Below are positions 1 to 28,745 of a stretch of DNA of 33,541 nt, piece after piece. The notes beneath the pieces were generated by a model that saw nothing but the letters and a program-made list of their open reading frames with translations, was not told where the DNA came from and did not search any database. The DNA lies in NCBI GenBank assembly GCA_043766165.1, contig JAYUIJ010000011.1, forward strand, positions 1-33,541. Direction: 5' to 3'. The position numbers were made by a program, and so were the translations under genes. Source of the DNA: Candidatus Kerfeldbacteria bacterium (GTDB taxonomy: Bacteria > Patescibacteriota > Patescibacteriia > SBBC01 > CAIJZX01). Each line of letters begins with the position of its first letter. The first letter of the stretch is position 1.

Positions 1-114
1 TTTCTCGTTCGTACTGATTCAGAATTTGCATAATGGTGGATAGTATGTCCTCCACCCCAGTATACCCTCCAAGTGTTGCAGGCTGACCTGAATTCAGTCC
101 ATTGTGGTGCGGGG

Positions 115-143
115 TTGACAAATTCCGTCAAATACCCTATACT
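115..143 (+). promoter_or_regulatory. Sigma70-type promoter (TTGACA-N17-TATACT) upstream of the high-GC ORF
   Basis: TTGACA at 115..120, exact 17-nt spacer, TATACT at 138..143. The same TTGACA-N17-TATACT architecture occurs at 9811 and 20484. Confidence 0.6.
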
Positions 144-179
144 GTTACGTTTGTCGTTCCTTATACTATAGCTTATAGG

Positions 180-230
180 CTGTGGCAGTAATAAGCGCAT
201 TTACTAGAAGTGCGTTTATTGCTGCCACGG
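180..230 (+). promoter_or_regulatory. Long stem-loop in the 5' leader of the high-GC ORF
   Basis: GTGGCAGTAATAAGCGCA (182..199) pairs with TGCGTTTATTGCTGCCAC (211..228) around an 11-nt loop. The two non-Watson-Crick positions are G:U only when read as plus-strand RNA. No U-run follows, so it is not a terminator. Confidence 0.55.
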
Positions 231-264
231 ATTGTCCTGGCCGCTCTTGTTAGGAGGGCAACAA

Positions 265-996
265 ATGCAGAACTTGTGGCGTGAAGATAATGGCGTGTTC
301 GACGTCATGTGCGGATCGAACATCACCAGCACCATCGCCGAAGCCATCACTCTGGCGACGGAGCAGAAGCGCCTCATCGCGTTCGAGTTCAACGGCGTGG
401 TCGTGAAGGTAGATTCGGGTTCCGAACCGAAGCTCATCTACCGCGACTGGGACCGCGCGCTCTGCGGATACATCGCAAAGAACGTCGGCCCTCGTCCGAG
501 TCCCGTTCTCACGGACGTGGAGAAGGTCAGCGACGCCAGCATCGAAGCCAAGAACGAGGAACGTCGTCAGAAGCGGCGGGCGGAGTACGACAAGAAAGCG
601 TGCTCTCACCGTGAGCGGGTCGAGGCCAAGCTGGCCAACACCCCCGCCATCGAGCTCGCCGACGAAGCTGGCTGGCAGAAGTTCAAGGACGCGAACACGG
701 ACGGCTACGGCGGTGGAGTCATCACCTACGCCGAGCGGTGGGCCAGGCTGATGCAAGTCGAGATGGCCAATGGGAAGAGTCTCAAAGAAGTGGCGGAAGC
801 TACATCGTCCGAGGCCGATATCGAAGGCATCACCGGCTTCATGTACGGTGCCGCGGTGGCTATGCTTTCGAAGGTGTGGATTCACGGCGATCAGTTCCGT
901 CGCTGGCACAACCTGAAAACCCAGATCGGTCACGAGGGTGAGCAGGCCAACGAGGAAGGCAACGTCCTCAATCCCGCGGTTCTGCGGATTGGCTAG
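265..996 (+). CDS. Hypothetical protein, 243 aa, compositionally foreign (high GC), no family recognised
   Basis: ATG at 265 lies 7 nt after AGGAGG (252..257), so the listed 232 TTG start is probably an over-extension. Third codon positions are GC-rich and the frame stays open to TAG at 994..996. Sampled 60-nt lines are 58-60% GC versus 40-43% in neighbouring genes. Confidence 0.8.
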   Translation: MQNLWREDNGVFDVMCGSNITSTIAEAITLATEQKRLIAFEFNGVVVKVDSGSEPKLIYRDWDRALCGYIAKNVGPRPSPVLTDVEKVSDASIEAKNEERRQKRRAEYDKKACSHRERVEAKLANTPAIELADEAGWQKFKDANTDGYGGGVITYAERWARLMQVEMANGKSLKEVAEATSSEADIEGITGFMYGAAVAMLSKVWIHGDQFRRWHNLKTQIGHEGEQANEEGNVLNPAVLRIG

Positions 997-9477: not shown

Positions 9478-9767
9478 CGACCACCGCATACCGAAAACAG
9501 TTTGCACCAGTTGGCGCATTCATTCAACGCCACGTTTTGCTGATCGCTTTAATTATTGGCCTACTCTGGAATGCCATAAGTTTATGGGAAAGTTGGACCC
9601 AGTATGCCGATAAAGTGCTCGCGGGAAACAGTATTAGCGCCAAACAGCTTCGGGTGAATGAAAGTCAGCGTTTGCAGCTCATTAAACGATTACAAAGCTA
9701 TCATCAACCAACAGCCGCCACCTCTGTTCCGCCGATCACGTACCAAGGTGATACAACCGGCCAATAA
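9468..9767 (+). CDS. Small single-TM protein at the end of the pilus operon, unknown function
   Basis: 99 aa, overlaps pilO by 10 nt, has one hydrophobic helix and no prepilin leader motif. Confidence 0.4.
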   Translation: MEITTTAYRKQFAPVGAFIQRHVLLIALIIGLLWNAISLWESWTQYADKVLAGNSISAKQLRVNESQRLQLIKRLQSYHQPTAATSVPPITYQGDTTGQ

Positions 9768-9810
9768 TCTATCTTCTAGGTGCTTTATGGGCTGATCCGG
9801 TCGGACCAGG

Positions 9811-9839
9811 TTGACAGTCTTTCTCGTTGTCGGTATACT
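9811..9839 (+). promoter_or_regulatory. Sigma70-type promoter for rpmA (TTGACA-N17-TATACT)
   Basis: TTGACA at 9811..9816, 17-nt spacer, TATACT at 9834..9839. Confidence 0.55.
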
Positions 9840-9883
9840 TATTCCCGCGCTCTTGGCGCATCTTCAAGCATTGTCATTGACCC

Positions 9884-10159
9884 ATGGCTCACACTAAATC
9901 CGGCGGCTCCACAGCATTAGGCCGCGATTCCCACAGCAAACGACTTGGCGTTAAACTTTTCGACGGCCAACGCGCCCGCGCCGGAGCTGTTCTTGTTCGT
10001 CAACGTGGTTCAAAATTCATTCCAGGTGATAATGTGGCTCGCGGCGGTGACGACACCTTGTTTGCTACAGCAACTGGTATTGTGGCCATCAAAACTCGTA
10101 CTAAAATCGGCTTCAACGGCAAGCGAACGCAACGACGGTACGTCCACGTTCAGGCATAA
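9884..10159 (+). CDS. rpmA: 50S ribosomal protein L27
   Basis: '[24 protein letters not shown]...' is the canonical L27 N-terminus; 91 aa. Confidence 0.95.
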
Positions 10160-10171
10160 ATTCTGCTTCAT

Positions 10172-10201
10172 AACAACTGCCCGCTCTGGCGGGTTGTTGT
10201 T
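10172..10201. terminator. Hairpin between convergent rpmA and pyrG (probably a bidirectional terminator)
   Basis: AACAACTGCCCGC-TCTG-GCGGGTTGTTGTT with a 2-nt internal mismatch and T-rich sequence after it. It overlaps the pyrG stop. Confidence 0.5.
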
Positions 10202-11837
10202 ATTTCTTTTTCTTCGATAGACCCGCTTTCAATAAGCCCACAAACAACGGATGTGGACTGAGCGGGCGCGACAGTAATTCCGGATGAAACTGTGTTCCGA
10301 CGAACCAGGGATGATCGTTCAGTTCTAGAATTTCTACTAACTTTCGTTGCGGTTCTTCACCGGCCACAATCATGCCCGCTTTCTCAAAGGCTTCACGATA
10401 GATGTTTTGAAACTCATAGCGGTGACGATGGCGTTCTTCAATTTTTCGTTTTCCATAAGCCCCCGCAGTTTTCGTGTTTGGAATAAGACGGCACGAGTAA
10501 GCACCAAGCCGCATTGAGCCGCCTAAATGTTTCTCTTTGAGTAAGTATTCTTGTTCCGGCAAGATATCAATAATTGGCTTTGGTGTTTTTGGATTAACTT
10601 CAGTCGTGTTCGCTTCACGCCAGCGGAGGACATGGCGAGCAAATTCAACGGCCATTAATTGCATCCCGTAACATAATCCTAAGCAAGGAATTTTTTTAGT
10701 TCGGGCGTACTGCAAAGCCGCAATTTTTCCCTCAACTCCCCGACTCCCAAATCCACCTGGGATGATGACCGCGTCAACCGTGTCAAGCTCGTGGAGTTTT
10801 TTTGGGTCGCGTTCATACTGTTCGGCATTCAACCAAGAAATTTCAACGGGTCGTTTCAATGACCATGCAGCATGCTTAATTGCTTCAATTACAGATACGT
10901 ACGAATCGCTTAATGTAAACGAGCCGGTGGTGAAATATTTACCAATGATGGCGACGCGCAGTGGTTTTACCGACGAAGCTGAATGACTGACCATCCGTTT
11001 CCAGTCTTTTAAATCTTTTTTCTTGGCGGGCAGATCGAATTTAACGAGGATTTTTTCCGCCAGACGTTCACGTTCAAAATTTAAGGGTACGGTATAAATA
11101 TTTTTCACATCAGGCGCGGAAATAATATCGCCCGGGTGCATATTGCAATTAACGGACAATTTTTCTTTGCGCGGTCCATCGAGCGGCTCCGCAGCGCGGC
11201 CAAGAATAAAGTTTGGTTGAATACCGGCCGCATTCAATGTCCGGACGGCGTACTGCGTCGGTTTGGTTTTCATTTCGCCGAGCTGGCCAGGAACCGGTAA
11301 GTAGCTCAGTAAAATAAATTGGACTCGGCCCGGCATCCGGAGATGCATCATCCGGGCTGCTTCCAGGAACAACATATTTTGATATTCACCAACTGTGCCG
11401 CCAATTTCAACTAACTGTATATCCGATTTATTGACGCGGGCCGCCGTGGTAATCCGATGAATGACTTCTTCAGGAACATGTGGCACTACTTCGACGCATT
11501 TTCCACCGTATCCTAGCGCCCGTTCACGTTCAATGACTGATAAATAGACCTGGCCAGTGGTCATGTAATCATGGCGGGTCAATGTGACATCAAGAAAACG
11601 TTCGTAGTTACCGATATCCTGATCGGTTTCTAAACCATCAGCGGTGACAAATACTTCACCATGCTCAGTTGGATTCATGGTTCCGGCGTCAACGTTTATG
11701 TAGGGATCGATTTTCATGGCTGCTACGCGATAGCCGCGACTTTTTAGCAGTAAGCCAATGGAAGAGACAGCAATGCCCTTACCTAAACCTGATAATACAC
11801 CGCCGACAACAAAAATATATCGTGGTTTATTAGCCAT
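10200..11837 (-). CDS. pyrG: CTP synthase
   Basis: 545 aa. N-terminal synthetase domain 'YIFVVGGVLSGLGKGI' and C-terminal glutamine amidotransferase domain 'GLCYGMQ'. Confidence 0.97.
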   Translation of the reverse strand: MANKPRYIFVVGGVLSGLGKGIAVSSIGLLLKSRGYRVAAMKIDPYINVDAGTMNPTEHGEVFVTADGLETDQDIGNYERFLDVTLTRHDYMTTGQVYLSVIERERALGYGGKCVEVVPHVPEEVIHRITTAARVNKSDIQLVEIGGTVGEYQNMLFLEAARMMHLRMPGRVQFILLSYLPVPGQLGEMKTKPTQYAVRTLNAAGIQPNFILGRAAEPLDGPRKEKLSVNCNMHPGDIISAPDVKNIYTVPLNFERERLAEKILVKFDLPAKKKDLKDWKRMVSHSASSVKPLRVAIIGKYFTTGSFTLSDSYVSVIEAIKHAAWSLKRPVEISWLNAEQYERDPKKLHELDTVDAVIIPGGFGSRGVEGKIAALQYARTKKIPCLGLCYGMQLMAVEFARHVLRWREANTTEVNPKTPKPIIDILPEQEYLLKEKHLGGSMRLGAYSCRLIPNTKTAGAYGKRKIEERHRHRYEFQNIYREAFEKAGMIVAGEEPQRKLVEILELNDHPWFVGTQFHPELLSRPLSPHPLFVGLLKAGLSKKKK

Positions 11838-12273
11838 TGGTGATATCGAGAGTTAATGGAAATGGCGGGACATCTTCAATGGTGACATTCAGTTGATGTT
11901 GGCCGACGGTTTTTACATGATCCGGTTGACTTCGAAAACGATTAATCTTGAGATGGAATTGATGCTCAAGTTGTTGACGAATCGCTTCAGCTTTTATTGA
12001 AGCAAAGAGTTTTCCTTGTGGGTTTGCTTTTCCGCTCATAGGTACGGTTTGGCCTTGAAGCTTGACTATCAGCGCCTGAATGTCCGTCTGATGCTGAGCG
12101 ATTGCCTGCTGTGTCTGGGCTTGATGATGTTGATGGTCATGCACAACTTTCGTCGTCGCCGCCACCGCTAACTTTTTTGGCAACAGAAAATTCCGGGCAT
12201 GTGCATCGCCAACCGTAACGATTTCTCCTGCTCGTCCGATTCCCGCAACTGGTTTGAGTAATTGAACTTTCAT
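11830..12273 (-). CDS. rplI: 50S ribosomal protein L9
   Basis: 'MKVQLLKPVAGIGRAGEIVTVGDAHARNFLLPKKLA' is a typical L9 N-domain. Long Q/H-rich linker. Confidence 0.9.
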   Translation of the reverse strand: MKVQLLKPVAGIGRAGEIVTVGDAHARNFLLPKKLAVAATTKVVHDHQHHQAQTQQAIAQHQTDIQALIVKLQGQTVPMSGKANPQGKLFASIKAEAIRQQLEHQFHLKINRFRSQPDHVKTVGQHQLNVTIEDVPPFPLTLDITNG

Positions 12274-25016: not shown

Positions 25017-26270
25017 ATGAAGCAGCCAATCATTGAAGTTAAAGATATTTCCAAAAAATATATTTTGTCGCATCGTCCGCCGTATGAAACATTGCGCGAT
25101 ATTGTGACTGAGTTTGCTAAGAAACCTTTTCGCAACTTGCGACGAGGCGCCAAGGAAACAAAAGAAGATTTTTGGGCATTGAAAGATGTATCTTTTAACG
25201 TTCAACAAGGCGAAGCGATTGGCTTGATTGGAGCGAATGGTTCAGGTAAATCGACCCTCCTGAAAATTCTTTCACAAATTACGGATCCAACCGAAGGTGA
25301 AATCAAGATTCGTGGCCGGGTTGCGTCATTACTTGAAGTCGGCACTGGTTTTCATCCTGAACTGACCGGCCGAGAAAATATTTTCTTGAATGGCGCTATT
25401 CTCGGAATGAAAAATAAAGAAATTAACGAGAAGTTTGATGACATTGTAAAATTCTCCGGAGTAGAGAAGTTTCTTGACACGCCAATTAAGCGGTACTCGT
25501 CTGGCATGTACGTTCGCTTGGCTTTTGCCGTTGCCGCCCACATGGATCCTGATATTCTTATTGTTGATGAAGTCTTAGCCGTCGGCGACGCGGAATTTCA
25601 GAAGAAATGTATTGAAAAAATGGAAAATATCACTAAAACTGGCGGCCGAACAGTCATCTTTGTTAGTCACAACCTGATTGCCATCCAAAATTTGTGCACC
25701 AAAACGATCGCCCTGGAACATGGACAGATTAAACACATGGGCGACACAAAAGAGGTTATTGATCAGTACATGGCCGACAAAACCCGCCCGTCAATCAACC
25801 CGGAACTTAGCGAACGCGGCGACGTGGGCGAAATCCGATTTACCGATATCCAAGTCACTAATACCAACGACTCAACTAAAATTAAAAGCGGTGATGCGCT
25901 ACGATTTAAAGTTTCTTACAGTAGTGATTTTGCTAAACCGATCGCTAAAGCCCAAGTGATTGTATCGGTGCTCAGCAGTACCTCAAAAGTCTTGGTAGCC
26001 CGTTTAGATAGCACAGTGACTGCCGATACCTTTACCGCCCCACTCACCACCACCGGCGACGTCATTTGTGAAACCGGCCCGATGAACTTTGTCGAGGGTT
26101 TGTATACAGTGAATTTGGATTTTCTCATCGACGGCGAAAACCGCGACCATATGGAACGCACGACCTCGTTCAACATCGAAACGGATAATAAGAAGTATAA
26201 TTTCCGCGCTGATCCTGACGCAAATGCGACGGACTACGTCGTGGATTTCAAGTTTTCCCAAGTAGAATAG
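25017..26270 (+). CDS. wzt: Polysaccharide ABC transporter ATP-binding protein (Wzt/TagH-like) with a C-terminal beta-sandwich extension
   Basis: Walker A 'GANGSGKST', signature 'YSSGM' and Walker B 'ILIVDE'. A further roughly 170 aa lies beyond the NBD and resembles the Wzt C-terminal glycan-binding domain. Confidence 0.9.
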   Translation: MKQPIIEVKDISKKYILSHRPPYETLRDIVTEFAKKPFRNLRRGAKETKEDFWALKDVSFNVQQGEAIGLIGANGSGKSTLLKILSQITDPTEGEIKIRGRVASLLEVGTGFHPELTGRENIFLNGAILGMKNKEINEKFDDIVKFSGVEKFLDTPIKRYSSGMYVRLAFAVAAHMDPDILIVDEVLAVGDAEFQKKCIEKMENITKTGGRTVIFVSHNLIAIQNLCTKTIALEHGQIKHMGDTKEVIDQYMADKTRPSINPELSERGDVGEIRFTDIQVTNTNDSTKIKSGDALRFKVSYSSDFAKPIAKAQVIVSVLSSTSKVLVARLDSTVTADTFTAPLTTTGDVICETGPMNFVEGLYTVNLDFLIDGENRDHMERTTSFNIETDNKKYNFRADPDANATDYVVDFKFSQVE

Positions 26271-26284
26271 TTTCGTTGAAATAC

Positions 26285-26304
26285 ATCCAGCACCACTTTC
26301 AATG
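26285..26304 (+). repeat. Repeat copy R1 (ATCCAGCACCACTTTCAATG)
   Basis: Identical 20-mer to R2, 105 bp upstream of it. It starts 15 nt after the wzt stop. Confidence 0.85.
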
Positions 26305-26389: not shown

Positions 26390-26409
26390 ATCCAGCACCA
26401 CTTTCAATG
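26390..26409 (+). repeat. Repeat copy R2 (ATCCAGCACCACTTTCAATG)
   Basis: Identical to R1 and forms an inverted pair with R3. Confidence 0.85.
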
Positions 26410-26471: not shown

Positions 26472-26491
26472 CTTTGAAAGTGGTGCTGGAT
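26472..26491 (-). repeat. Repeat copy R3, inverted (19 of 20 match to R1/R2)
   Basis: CTTTGAAAGTGGTGCTGGAT is the reverse complement of the R1/R2 20-mer with one mismatch. It abuts the A/T run of the adjacent terminator. Confidence 0.85.
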
Positions 26492-26498
26492 AAAAAAG

Positions 26499-26537
26499 AG
26501 TCCCACGACGATTGCATCGTGGGACTTGTGTTTTGTG
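26499..26537. terminator. Bidirectional intrinsic terminator between wzt and the high-GC minus-strand gene
   Basis: AGTCCCACGA-loop-TCGTGGGACT (26499..26526). It is flanked by AAAAAA on the left (a U-run for the minus strand) and TGTGTTTTGTG on the right (a U-rich tail for the plus strand). Confidence 0.7.
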
Positions 26538-26545
26538 CGATTCGA

Positions 26546-27301
26546 CTACATCTTCGCCCGACGGTCGAGGTACTCGAACATCTCCTGGAAGTTGGCGTTA
26601 CGGGTGTACTTCGGCCCACCATCGACCAGCGGCTGAGCGTACATGACGATCCGCTCCATCTCGGCCGCGATGTGATCAGGCAACGTGCCCATCACATCTT
26701 CGGTCATGGCCGTACCACCCGCCATGACCGGCTTCGTCATGGGGTAGTTCCAGGCGATCGGCGGCGGCGGCGCGTTGTAGACGGCCGGGTAGTAGTCGAC
26801 TTCTGACATCAGGGCCACGATCTGCAAGAAACAGCGGAGCTGATGATGCGGCTGGGAAGCGATGGCCAGCTTGGTCCATCCCCTTTCCTTGGCCAGCAAC
26901 AGCAGGTTCCGCGATTCGGCGCCGGTGTGGGACGAAGGAGGCAGGATGATGATGCTCTTCTCCGAAACACCCCGCTTCACCAGAGTCTCCTGCCACGCTT
27001 CGAAGCCGTTGTAGGCCAGGTTCTTCGCCCGGCAGGCTTCCCGAGTCAGGCCGTTGAGAATCACGTAGTCGGCGTAGCGATCGTAGGGAACATCGAGCAT
27101 CTCGCCGCGAGGCATGTTACTGAATCCCGCCACATACTTCAGGATGACCTCGTCCCGGTGATCGTCACGGATGGGCGAGCCGTGAATGAAGACTGCGTTG
27201 ACCGATCTCGGCAGGGCATCAGACAGGACAGCCGTCGTCGCCATGAGCGTTTCCAGGGCAGTCGGTGTCCACTTCTGAACATCCTTTTCAGCAGTGTCCA
27301 T
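26546..27301 (-). CDS. YdcF/DUF218-like protein, 251 aa, compositionally foreign (high GC)
   Basis: 'IIILPPSSHTGAESRNLLLLAKERGWTKLAIASQPHHQLRCF' matches, from memory, the DUF218 core pattern (S-x-N/H-T-x-x-E ... VTS-x-x-H-x-x-R). GTGAGG lies 8 nt upstream of the ATG. A sampled line is 65% GC. Confidence 0.75.
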   Translation of the reverse strand: MDTAEKDVQKWTPTALETLMATTAVLSDALPRSVNAVFIHGSPIRDDHRDEVILKYVAGFSNMPRGEMLDVPYDRYADYVILNGLTREACRAKNLAYNGFEAWQETLVKRGVSEKSIIILPPSSHTGAESRNLLLLAKERGWTKLAIASQPHHQLRCFLQIVALMSEVDYYPAVYNAPPPPIAWNYPMTKPVMAGGTAMTEDVMGTLPDHIAAEMERIVMYAQPLVDGGPKYTRNANFQEMFEYLDRRAKM

Positions 27302-27380
27302 TTCTTAAACCTCACTGATTTGGGAAGGAACGAACTTCTCGGGAACGAAACAGCGTCACCGAAAACACAAGTGACCACGT

Positions 27381-27409
27381 AAAATAACATAGTTACATCT
27401 ATTTGTCAA
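27381..27409 (-). promoter_or_regulatory. Sigma70-type promoter for the high-GC DUF218-like gene (TTGACA-N17-TATTTT)
   Basis: On the minus strand, TTGACA at 27409..27404, a 17-nt spacer and TATTTT at 27386..27381. Confidence 0.5.
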
Positions 27410-27427: not shown

Positions 27428-27456
27428 ATGACGAAAAAAGCCAATTATGGTATCAT
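27428..27456 (+). promoter_or_regulatory. Candidate extended -10 promoter for the CDP-dideoxyhexose operon
   Basis: ATGACG at 27428..27433, 17-nt spacer, TG-n-TATCAT at 27448..27456. It sits back to back with the minus-strand promoter at 27381..27409. Confidence 0.45.
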
Positions 27457-27521
27457 TTGATCGTTATATTTGTATTGTTTCTTGTTATTTTTGCACAATT
27501 ATCCATCTGTCCGTCAACGAT

Positions 27522-28745
27522 ATGCCTACACCAGCCACCCCGAATATCCGCGTGCCATACGGTTTTTCCGTTCATGGACAAGAGGAAATAGATGCCGTGG
27601 TCGATATTCTCAAAGGTAACACTGCACTAGGCGATAAGACGAAGGAATTCGAAGGAAAAATTGCGGCCATGTTTGGCAAAAAGTATGGGGTAATGGTTAA
27701 CTCCGGTTCTTCGGCGAACTTGTTAGCTTTTGAAATATTGCAATTACCGGCCGGCAGCGAAGTTATAACCCCCCTGTTAACATTTGCCACGACGGTTGCG
27801 CCGATTGTTCAGAAAGGTTTGGTACCAGTATTCGTCGACATTGACCCGAATACATTCATCGTCAACCTCGACCAAGTCAAAGCATCCATTACTGATAAAA
27901 CGAAGGCCTTAATGATTCCGTCGTTGATGGGTAATATCCCGAACTTGGAAGCGCTGTGGAACTTAGCTGAAGAAAAGAAAATTTGGTTAATTGAAGATTC
28001 TTGCGACACCCTTGGTGGAACTTACGATGGAAAACCAACCGGCACATTTTCACACATTACGACCACCAGTTTTTATGGCTCGCATATCATCAACGGCGCG
28101 GGCGGCGGCGGCATTATCTGCGTTAATGACCCGGCCTGGGTTGATCGACTCGTCGTGCTTCGCGGTTGGGGCCGTCAGTCGTCATTGTTCGGCGAAAAAG
28201 CGAATTCAGAATTATTAGAAAATCGTTTTAAGACAGAGCTGGCTGGAATTCCTTATGATAATAAGTTTATTTTCAGTGAAATTGGCTATAACTTTCTACC
28301 GCTGGAAATTTCTTCAGCCTTCGCCTTGGAACAACTAAAAAAGTTCCCCGTGTTCGCTGAAGCGCGGAAGAAAAACTTTAAAAAACTGTTTGACTTCTTC
28401 CAGAAATACAAAAACTTCTTCGATCTGGCTGAACAAACACCAAAAACGGAAACAATATGGTTAGCATTTCCATTGATCATCAAAGCCGGCGCGCCGTTTA
28501 CACGTTTGGATATTGTTACCTTCTTGGAAAATAATAACGTCCAGACTCGGCCAGTATTCACTGGTAATGTCTTGAAACAACCAGGTTATACTCACATTCC
28601 ACACCGTTTAGCGCAGGATAGTTATCCAAATACTGAGCATATTATGCGGAACGCGTTCGTGGTCGCTTCGCATCATGGGTTGAAAGACGAACAAATGGAC
28701 TATCTCTGCCTGAAGTTCGATGAATTCTTAAGCCAGCACGCCTAA
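27522..28745 (+). CDS. PLP/PMP-dependent sugar 3-dehydratase of the RfbH/DdhC (E1) - ColD type
   Basis: DegT/DnrJ/EryC1 fold with 'SFYGSH': His (codon 28083..28085) replaces the Schiff-base Lys, the hallmark of E1/ColD dehydratases. ATG 27522 (MPTPATPNIRVPYG) is preferred over the listed 27447 start. Confidence 0.8.
   Translation: MPTPATPNIRVPYGFSVHGQEEIDAVVDILKGNTALGDKTKEFEGKIAAMFGKKYGVMVNSGSSANLLAFEILQLPAGSEVITPLLTFATTVAPIVQKGLVPVFVDIDPNTFIVNLDQVKASITDKTKALMIPSLMGNIPNLEALWNLAEEKKIWLIEDSCDTLGGTYDGKPTGTFSHITTTSFYGSHIINGAGGGGIICVNDPAWVDRLVVLRGWGRQSSLFGEKANSELLENRFKTELAGIPYDNKFIFSEIGYNFLPLEISSAFALEQLKKFPVFAEARKKNFKKLFDFFQKYKNFFDLAEQTPKTETIWLAFPLIIKAGAPFTRLDIVTFLENNNVQTRPVFTGNVLKQPGYTHIPHRLAQDSYPNTEHIMRNAFVVASHHGLKDEQMDYLCLKFDEFLSQHA

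Follow-up and report, generated by a model that had tools for sequence, protein, structure and literature searches.

Contig JAYUIJ010000011.1 of Candidatus Kerfeldbacteria (assembly GCA_043766165.1; 33,541 nucleotides, denoted here the window) carries a glycan locus in which one gene, encoding a DUF218-like protein, lies antisense between wzt and rfbH and differs sharply from its surroundings in G+C (GC) content. The locus raises the question of whether this gene (here denoted the target) arrived recently, as a preliminary description of the sequence had proposed, or has long belonged where it is found. The analysis indicates that the target is not a host-derived insertion and that, as a conserved feature of Patescibacteria, it accompanies nucleotide-sugar genes of rfbH type. 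The reading we hold, with moderate confidence in it as a whole, is that of an old rfbH companion, an enzyme of DUF218 fold in a nucleotide-sugar pathway, whose GC content results from exchange among Patescibacteria.

Composition and genomic neighbourhood of the target

The target has a GC content of 0.602 and a GC content at third codon positions (GC3) of 0.794, against 0.467 in the rest of the window, and by GC3 it ranks first among the 33 open reading frames (ORFs), whose mean GC3 is 0.47 (z = 5.0). In bins of 60 bp, GC climbs and drops at the ends of the coding sequence (CDS), and the spacers on either side have GC contents of 0.37 and 0.41. Single bins reach 0.65, as the preliminary description had it; its estimate of 40-45% for the backbone came near, the actual values being slightly higher at about 0.41-0.49. 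Besides GC3, the GC contents of the first two codon positions (GC1 and GC2) and the amino-acid composition are shifted, and the relative synonymous codon usage of the target correlates with that of the window backbone at 0.12-0.19. The anomalous composition is thus confirmed by GC, GC3 and z-score, and in base composition and codon usage the target deviates from its host as a foreign gene does. Its codon usage is as close to that of unrelated GC-rich backbones (correlations up to r = 0.85) as to that of the orthologues. Since codon and amino-acid use look like those of any GC-rich genome, they are the signature of long residence in a background of GC about 0.6. A codon preference specific to the family, or the signature of a common donor, was rejected, the codon usage being equal to that of generic GC-rich backbones.

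Homologues of the target were compared across numbered loci (L003-L046), among which a site carrying a homologue of a second GC-rich gene of the window is also listed (L042). The target homologue directly adjoins rfbH in nine loci and in three arrangements: divergent from rfbH in the window, L006, L008, L011 and L012, upstream and co-directional in L003 and L014, and downstream and co-directional in L016 and L028. It is convergent with wzt in the window, L006, L011 and L012. In L011 and L012 the homologue occupies the identical slot, in the identical orientation, between wzt and rfbH, while in L006 it stands beside an rfbH remnant and in L008 a TylF-like methyltransferase replaces wzt. The earlier idea of a one-off insertion between wzt and the CDP-dideoxyhexose (ddh) operon is not borne out by this comparison; the same slot recurs in relatives, and wzt directly abuts rfbH in no sampled relative. 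Most other members of the family adjoin genes of short-chain dehydrogenase/reductase (SDR) type, encoding nucleoside diphosphate (NDP)-sugar dehydratases or epimerases, or gmd (L009, L017, L018, L019, L020 and L046).

That the target and rfbH have stayed adjacent through three rearrangements speaks for a functional link to NDP-4-keto-6-deoxyhexose chemistry, with the rfbH-type dehydrase as the presumed partner of the DUF218-like gene. The conserved neighbourhood strongly backs a role in glycan biology, which the preliminary description had considered conceivable.

Origin of the high GC content

In each of the seven loci compared first, the target exceeds its locus in GC content. In AT-rich loci (the window, L003, L006, L011 and L022) it does so by 0.14 to 0.24, with GC3 z-scores of up to 9.7; the target has a GC content of 0.61-0.62 against 0.376 in L003 (z = 9.7), 0.56 against 0.389 in L011 (z = 8.0) and 0.59 against 0.40 in L022. 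Throughout the clade nearest the window, target GC is 0.52-0.63 and GC3 0.57-0.82, whatever the GC of the flanks (0.376-0.547). In GC-rich contigs (flanks 0.58-0.64) the target is the poorer partner, at 0.53-0.55, that is, 0.05-0.11 below its host; the contigs with these lower-GC members are L018 and L030-L036, one of them binned as 'Rhodoplanes'. Host-like GC or a small excess was found in L012, L014, L015, L016, L017, L019, L020, L028, L045 and L046, with L014, L020, L045 and L046 as intermediate cases. High GC characterises this clade of the gene family and does not point to a single import event into this genome.

As the cause, we infer that gene-sized exchange, with in-place replacement of the resident copy, among Patescibacteria differing in base composition is the most likely, the copies after such exchange being seen at differing stages of amelioration. 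A contrast between two loci illustrates this. L003 and L014 have the closest pair of DegT (rfbH-type) proteins, 84% identical, and yet their targets are just 48% identical and have GC contents of 0.61 and 0.40; similar rfbH genes beside such unlike targets suggest replacement in one lineage. Across the syntenic loci, identity to the window copy is 46-53% for the target, 74-80% for DegT, 62-79% for the NTP-transferase and 53-58% for Wzt. Congruence of target and flank trees or distances proved uninformative as a test (Spearman -0.09), all pairwise distances being star-like and no pair of targets unusually close.

Several observations sit uneasily with exchange. No donor is known, the best homologue being 62% identical; in all six loci that were profiled, the GC step falls at the CDS ends; and five loci share slot and orientation. 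Steps confined to the CDS, together with a recurring slot, are hard to reconcile with independent replacement events mediated by homologous recombination in flanking sequence. For these reasons we keep as a serious rival, albeit a less likely one, an old resident gene whose GC of about 0.6 is actively maintained despite AT-biased mutation in the host, by selection on the nucleotide composition of the CDS or by gene-specific biased repair or conversion, as would likewise be the case for the second GC-rich gene of the window, encoding a Tad4-like protein.

In favour of maintenance, the five loci that share slot and orientation are deeply diverged, with flanks as diverged as the target itself. 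With proteins 46-59% identical, saturation must have been reached at synonymous sites; GC3 in these copies is nonetheless 0.72-0.80, against 0.34-0.47 in the other genes of their hosts. Within the clade the GC3 of the target does not follow that of the host, and in the GC-rich contigs it lies below the host, as if there were an optimum near 0.55-0.6. The Tad4-like orthologues hold GC contents of 0.60-0.62 in hosts of 0.45-0.55, and the confinement of the GC step to the CDS and the want of a known donor also fit a resident gene. On the other side, GC1, GC2 and amino-acid usage are shifted as in a GC-rich genome, and codon usage is generic for such genomes, showing no special preference. Maintenance linked to expression is contradicted by the ribosomal L10 and L12 genes in L003, whose GC3 is about 0.4, and expression-linked codon bias was accordingly rejected. 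The target mRNA has no excess structure (z = -0.12) and no significant overlapping ORF, orthologues in L012, L015, L016, L017, L019 and L028 have host-like GC, and no mechanism of such size is known. Polymorphism between near-identical contigs, sought for polarising substitutions, gave nothing usable, as these contigs were identical or had too few differences.

Generalised to a small set of Patescibacteria families that hold GC of about 0.6 and GC3 of about 0.8 in place for very long, in hosts with GC3 of 0.34-0.47, the idea becomes more doubtful still. If true, the DUF218-like rfbH companion and the Tad4-like protein would be subject to a gene-specific force on nucleotide composition, and not to horizontal transfer; selection might act on properties of the codons or the mRNA, for example, the genes might evade an AT-directed nuclease or silencer, or repair might be biased locally.

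Far less probable than either exchange or maintenance is the origin suggested in the preliminary description, a recent, lineage-specific import into an episymbiont from its high-GC actinobacterial host, with wzt and the ddh operon flanking the insertion site. The strongly deviant composition of the target, its self-contained promoter and terminator, and the presence in the window of a second gene with the same composition speak for such an import. Against it, orthologues are found at the same position in other Patescibacteria (L006, L008, L011 and L012 share the slot), are as diverged as their flanks or more so, and in many cases share the high GC (several being equally GC-rich in AT-rich genomes), the very pattern named beforehand as contradicting a recent import. 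The other contradiction named with it, nearest homologues in low-GC relatives, applies too. Every homologue with an organism name is from Patescibacteria, with the exception of a single bin labelled Rhodoplanes; there is no actinobacterial one among them. Likewise, when 185,579 species genomes were scanned for the motif, nine loci were returned, none of them actinobacterial and all in Patescibacteria metagenome-assembled genomes except for one 'Rhodoplanes' bin. A near-identical homologue in a distant donor taxon was not found, as the nearest reaches only 62% identity.

Signatures of mobility were also missing. No integrase or other mobility gene is among the genes named in or beside the locus (tRNA genes were not scanned), and no att-like flanking repeats were found around the target, the 18-mer repeats described below lying on one side only. 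No phage or viral relatives were detected in IMG/VR or among GenBank phages, and a phage or mobile-element origin was rejected on this ground. The target does resemble phage 'morons' and genomic islets in being a single gene that brings its own promoter and terminator and stands sharply apart from its neighbours in GC content. Unlike these, it lies outside a prophage, has neither mobility genes nor two-sided repeats nor viral relatives, and occupies the same position in many diverged genomes. The premise of a Saccharibacteria-type episymbiont fared no better. Among named sequences, the window MraY is closest to Candidatus Kerfeldbacteria (67-69%), followed by Uhrbacteria and Falkowbacteria, so a Saccharibacterium living on Actinobacteria is not established. 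The recent-import reading is thus largely refuted, and no actinobacterial donor emerges.

Least probable of all is a second function of the DNA, an overlapping coding frame or a structured RNA on either strand, as the source of the high GC: the long ORFs reported in other frames (26474..26806, 26676..26996 and 26843..27382) all exist, but synonymous shuffles of the gene show that codon composition accounts for their lengths, those of the long antisense (-1) ORFs included; the mRNA folds no better than dinucleotide shuffles (the z-score given above), and no Rfam family matches better than E = 0.7. Overlapping or antisense coding and structured or known RNA families were rejected accordingly, save for a weak excess in the +3 frame. 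In 5 of 7 orthologues this frame is slightly more open than it is in their synonymous shuffles (p 0.03-0.12 each), which TpA avoidance at codon junctions could explain. This +3-frame openness was seen in the window gene and also in L003, L006, L008 and L022.

The second GC island of the window has a composition near-identical to that of the target. A comparison of codon usage, proposed earlier as a test for a common donor, confirmed the likeness and neither proved nor excluded such a donor, since both genes look like any GC-rich genome. The C-terminal half of the encoded protein matches Pfam Tad4, a type I Thoeris inhibitor family (E 3e-29), as well as phrog_9822, and shares 45-48% identity with hypothetical proteins encoded by large Bacillus phages; for the N-terminal ~128 amino acids, phage records gave no match. 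Full-length homologues abound in Patescibacteria (616 matches at 53-77% identity, including Parcubacteria and Wolfebacteria), and the orthologues, whose GC values are given above, lie at non-syntenic sites, one homologue adjoining an integrase in L042. A phage anti-defence domain fixed in episymbiont-type bacteria deserves a study of its own. Another local GC island (0.53 versus 0.38) was noticed at L016:1-1000, overlapping a 180-aa ORF (12..554) whose family was not recognised.

The encoded protein and the DUF218 superfamily

Searched alone, the window protein had no match in Pfam, NCBIfam, PHROGs, PADLOC or the PDB sequences. A search of 5.8 billion proteins found 27 relatives, none with a protein name and the few with an organism label listed as "Patescibacteria group bacterium" or "bacterium". 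An exhaustive profile search gave a larger family, of 62 clusters with a threshold of E<=1e-30 and of 791 with E<=1e-3. Of the 27 family members, 14 match the DUF218 profile PF02698 at E<=1, and two exceed its gathering cut-off of 27.6 bits, namely P0017 (30.0 bits; E 4e-51 to the query) and P0022 (27.7 bits). Membership in DUF218 is thus carried by clear homologues above the threshold and not by the score of the window protein itself. In some family members the match to PF02698 covers positions 1-101 of 133; the match ends near residues 150-160, and the C-terminal third of the family (~170-251) lies beyond it.

The family alignment has 16 invariant positions, among them N83, G99, T126, E129, H153, R156 and E214, and displays the motifs HGSP, NGLT, HTxAES and SQPHHQLRCFLQ. 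An AlphaFold2 model built from this alignment is of high confidence (predicted local distance difference test score 91.5, predicted template modelling score 0.89), apart from a loop at residues ~62-79, which is an insertion private to the window copy. The sole PDB fold matches at E<=1e-3 are chains A and B of Escherichia coli YdcF, 3CA8 (E 1.9e-4, probability 1.00), and the matches that follow are other nucleotide-binding Rossmann-like folds, indicating an alpha/beta nucleotide-binding fold of YdcF type. In addition, hhalign aligned the family to E. coli SanA (E 1.7e-4), pairing the invariant T126, H153 and R156 with SanA T125, H149 and R152. Alanine substitution abolishes SanA function at three residues, T125 and H149 among them (PMC12176290), so the conserved Thr and His of the SanA Thr/His/Glu centre are both present in the family. 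The alignment stops at residue 173, so that SanA E182 falls outside it, and the invariant E129 and E214 are candidates for the Glu.

Comparison with the characterised members of the superfamily shows how far the target has diverged. Like YdcF (3CA8; PF02698), it is of similar size and alpha/beta nucleotide-binding fold, and, as no transmembrane or hydrophobic segment was found in the window protein, it should be cytosolic as YdcF is. In the YdcF sequence, hhalign places the last two motifs of the target family (in the order HGSP, NGLT, HTxAES, SQPHHQLRC). The two proteins differ in that they share ~10-12% identity and no significant sequence or profile match, and in genomic context; in the weak hhalign alignment, YdcF has no His opposite H153 of the target. 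The ligand of YdcF is SAM. SanA and ElyC are membrane-anchored periplasmic DUF218 proteins that affect peptidoglycan and the flux of enterobacterial common antigen. They share with the target the DUF218 core, the aligned Thr, His and Arg (in SanA) and a link to envelope glycan biogenesis. The target, by contrast, has neither membrane anchor nor signal peptide and would act in the cytoplasm, and it is tied to nucleotide-sugar genes and not to periplasmic steps that involve undecaprenyl phosphate. We know of no DUF218 protein (YdcF, SanA or ElyC) with known biochemical activity.

From these data we conclude that the target represents a remote, hitherto unrecognised and very divergent subfamily of the DUF218 superfamily, whose carriers known so far are all Patescibacteria. 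The DUF218 assignment in the preliminary description was right at the level of family and fold, as the family members, the fold and the SanA alignment attest; from the single window sequence it could not be confirmed.

A number of results weigh against the reading of the target as a DUF218 enzyme and rfbH companion. The window protein does not match PF02698 even at E<=1, no PDB chain was found when the family profile was compared with the PDB sequences, and the hhalign alignment to the YdcF sequence is insignificant. The template modelling (TM) score to 3CA8 is modest, at about 0.46 (0.45-0.47). The chemistry proposed below is guilt by association, the activities of DUF218 proteins not being known. 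Furthermore, two members, L015 and L045 only, clearly lie outside glycan loci. In L045 the homologue is found within a segment bracketed by an inverted duplication (1-2133 and 9479-12008) of Metallophos, VanW and HSP20 genes.

Local organisation, pathway and proposed role

The features of the locus are listed in the table below. The target is the lone antisense gene, as described earlier; all other ORFs of >=120 aa taken as genes between 20550 and 33539 are on the plus strand. The interval first given for it, 26546-27409, comprises the CDS, which ends at 27301, and beyond it the 5' untranslated region or leader and the promoter. The promoter was assigned purely by pattern match. The terminator-like hairpin lies 19 nt past the stop codon of the target and also faces the wzt side. 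As counted in 1.5 kb, promoter-like sites (2 versus 1.4 expected) and terminator-like sites (3 versus 1.5 expected) are not above shuffle expectation, yet their positions fit; the promoter, Shine-Dalgarno (SD) site and bidirectional terminator claimed for the gene are therefore present and well placed, while their counts alone are not significant. The protein collection, in which the window protein is P0002, also holds a 144-aa version covering the C-terminal 57% of the query at 99% identity; as it is listed under the window's own contigs, the gene was called short in one assembly.

Features of the window discussed in the text
Feature	Position	Strand	Description	Basis
wzt	25017..26270	+	ABC transporter ATPase, convergent with the target	
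18-mer TTGAAAGTGGTGCTGGAT, copy 1	26285-26302	-	in the wzt-target spacer	exact match
18-mer TTGAAAGTGGTGCTGGAT, copy 2	26390-26407	-	in the wzt-target spacer	exact match
18-mer TTGAAAGTGGTGCTGGAT, copy 3	26474-26491	+	in the wzt-target spacer	exact match
Terminator-like hairpin	26498..26527	.	G+C-rich, T-runs on both strands	scan; inverted repeat I4
Target CDS (DUF218-like)	26546..27301	-	251 aa, ATG start	ORF call
SD-like site	27313..27310	-	GAGG, 8 nt before ATG	read from sequence
Promoter-like site, target	27409..27381	-	sigma-70-like, TTGACA-17-TATTTT, extended -10 TG	consensus scan, 10/12 matches
Promoter-like site, rfbH operon	27428..27456	+	plausible only if rfbH starts at M26 (27522)	consensus scan, 9/12
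rfbH-type gene	27447..28745	+	(E1/ColD-like) CDP-4-keto-6-deoxyglucose 3-dehydrase	Pfam DegT
Tad4-like ORF	265..996 (window 232/265..996)	+	243 aa; GC 0.60; GC1/2/3 0.61/0.41/0.79	

Upstream of the target lie gmd, fcl, a gene for a Polysacc_synt-type (flippase-like) membrane protein, wzm and wzt. Downstream are five genes, for the rfbH-type dehydrase, a glucose-1-phosphate cytidylyltransferase, a CDP-glucose 4,6-dehydratase, an RmlC-like epimerase and an SDR reductase, which make up a CDP-3,6-dideoxyhexose pathway. The rfbH homologue scores 345 bits against NCBIfam RfbH, under the cut-off of 423, and its best PDB match is the E1 dehydrase 3BCX (1e-77). The active-site His is kept and the Fe-S cysteine motif of E1 is absent, the position of E1 DCYCAPGCDNTC being occupied by QSSLFGEKANSE. 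As no E3 reductase gene was found in any of the loci compared either, the RfbH homologue looks cluster-less and ColD-like. The possibility that the DUF218-like protein is the missing E3 (DdhD/AscD) partner of E1 was dropped, as a ColD-like RfbH needs no E3. Since rfbH orthologues have 405-408 aa and the alignment to E1 starts at residue 32, rfbH probably begins at Met26 (27522) and not at 27447. A start at 27522 would leave a divergent control region of 220 bp with a GC content of 0.37. The -35 hexamers of the two promoter-like sites are 18 bp apart.

The spacer between wzt and the target contains three exact copies of the 18-mer TTGAAAGTGGTGCTGGAT, versus 0.05 expected (repeat families D1, I1 and I2). 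Copies 2 and 3, separated by a 66-nt loop, constitute a perfect inverted repeat of 18 bp that abuts the terminator hairpin. The 18-mer is absent from all other loci fetched and is private to the window contig. These repeats could be an operator, an RNA hairpin or the remnant of a miniature inverted-repeat transposable element; as insertion scars they were rejected, being on one side only and absent from the other loci.

Returning to the rfbH companion, we propose that the target encodes a soluble enzyme of ~230-250 aa, a long-standing and separately transcribed partner of NDP-4-keto-6-deoxyhexose genes, above all of the rfbH-type CDP-sugar 3-dehydrase. It would be read from its own sigma-70-like promoter, back-to-back with that of the rfbH operon, and its transcription would end at the bidirectional hairpin that also faces wzt. 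The Rossmann-like pocket of the protein may bind a nucleotide or a nucleotide-sugar, and a centre of Thr126 and His153, plus a Glu, in common with SanA, would act on an intermediate of the CDP-3,6-dideoxyhexose glycan pathway or regulate its flux. On grounds of fold and neighbourhood, we infer as the best reading a cytoplasmic enzyme of this pathway that binds a nucleotide or nucleotide-sugar. Being soluble, tied to an rfbH-type dehydrase in at least nine diverged loci and in possession of the Thr and His of SanA, the subfamily narrows the candidate substrates to nucleotide-sugar intermediates.

The subfamily offers a simple in vitro system for testing DUF218 chemistry and is a lead of moderate value in this respect. 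Its orthologues at conserved positions, with GC3 near 0.8 in genomes near 0.35, provide a test case for repeated replacement versus maintenance. They also serve as a warning that a GC island alone is no proof of recent import.

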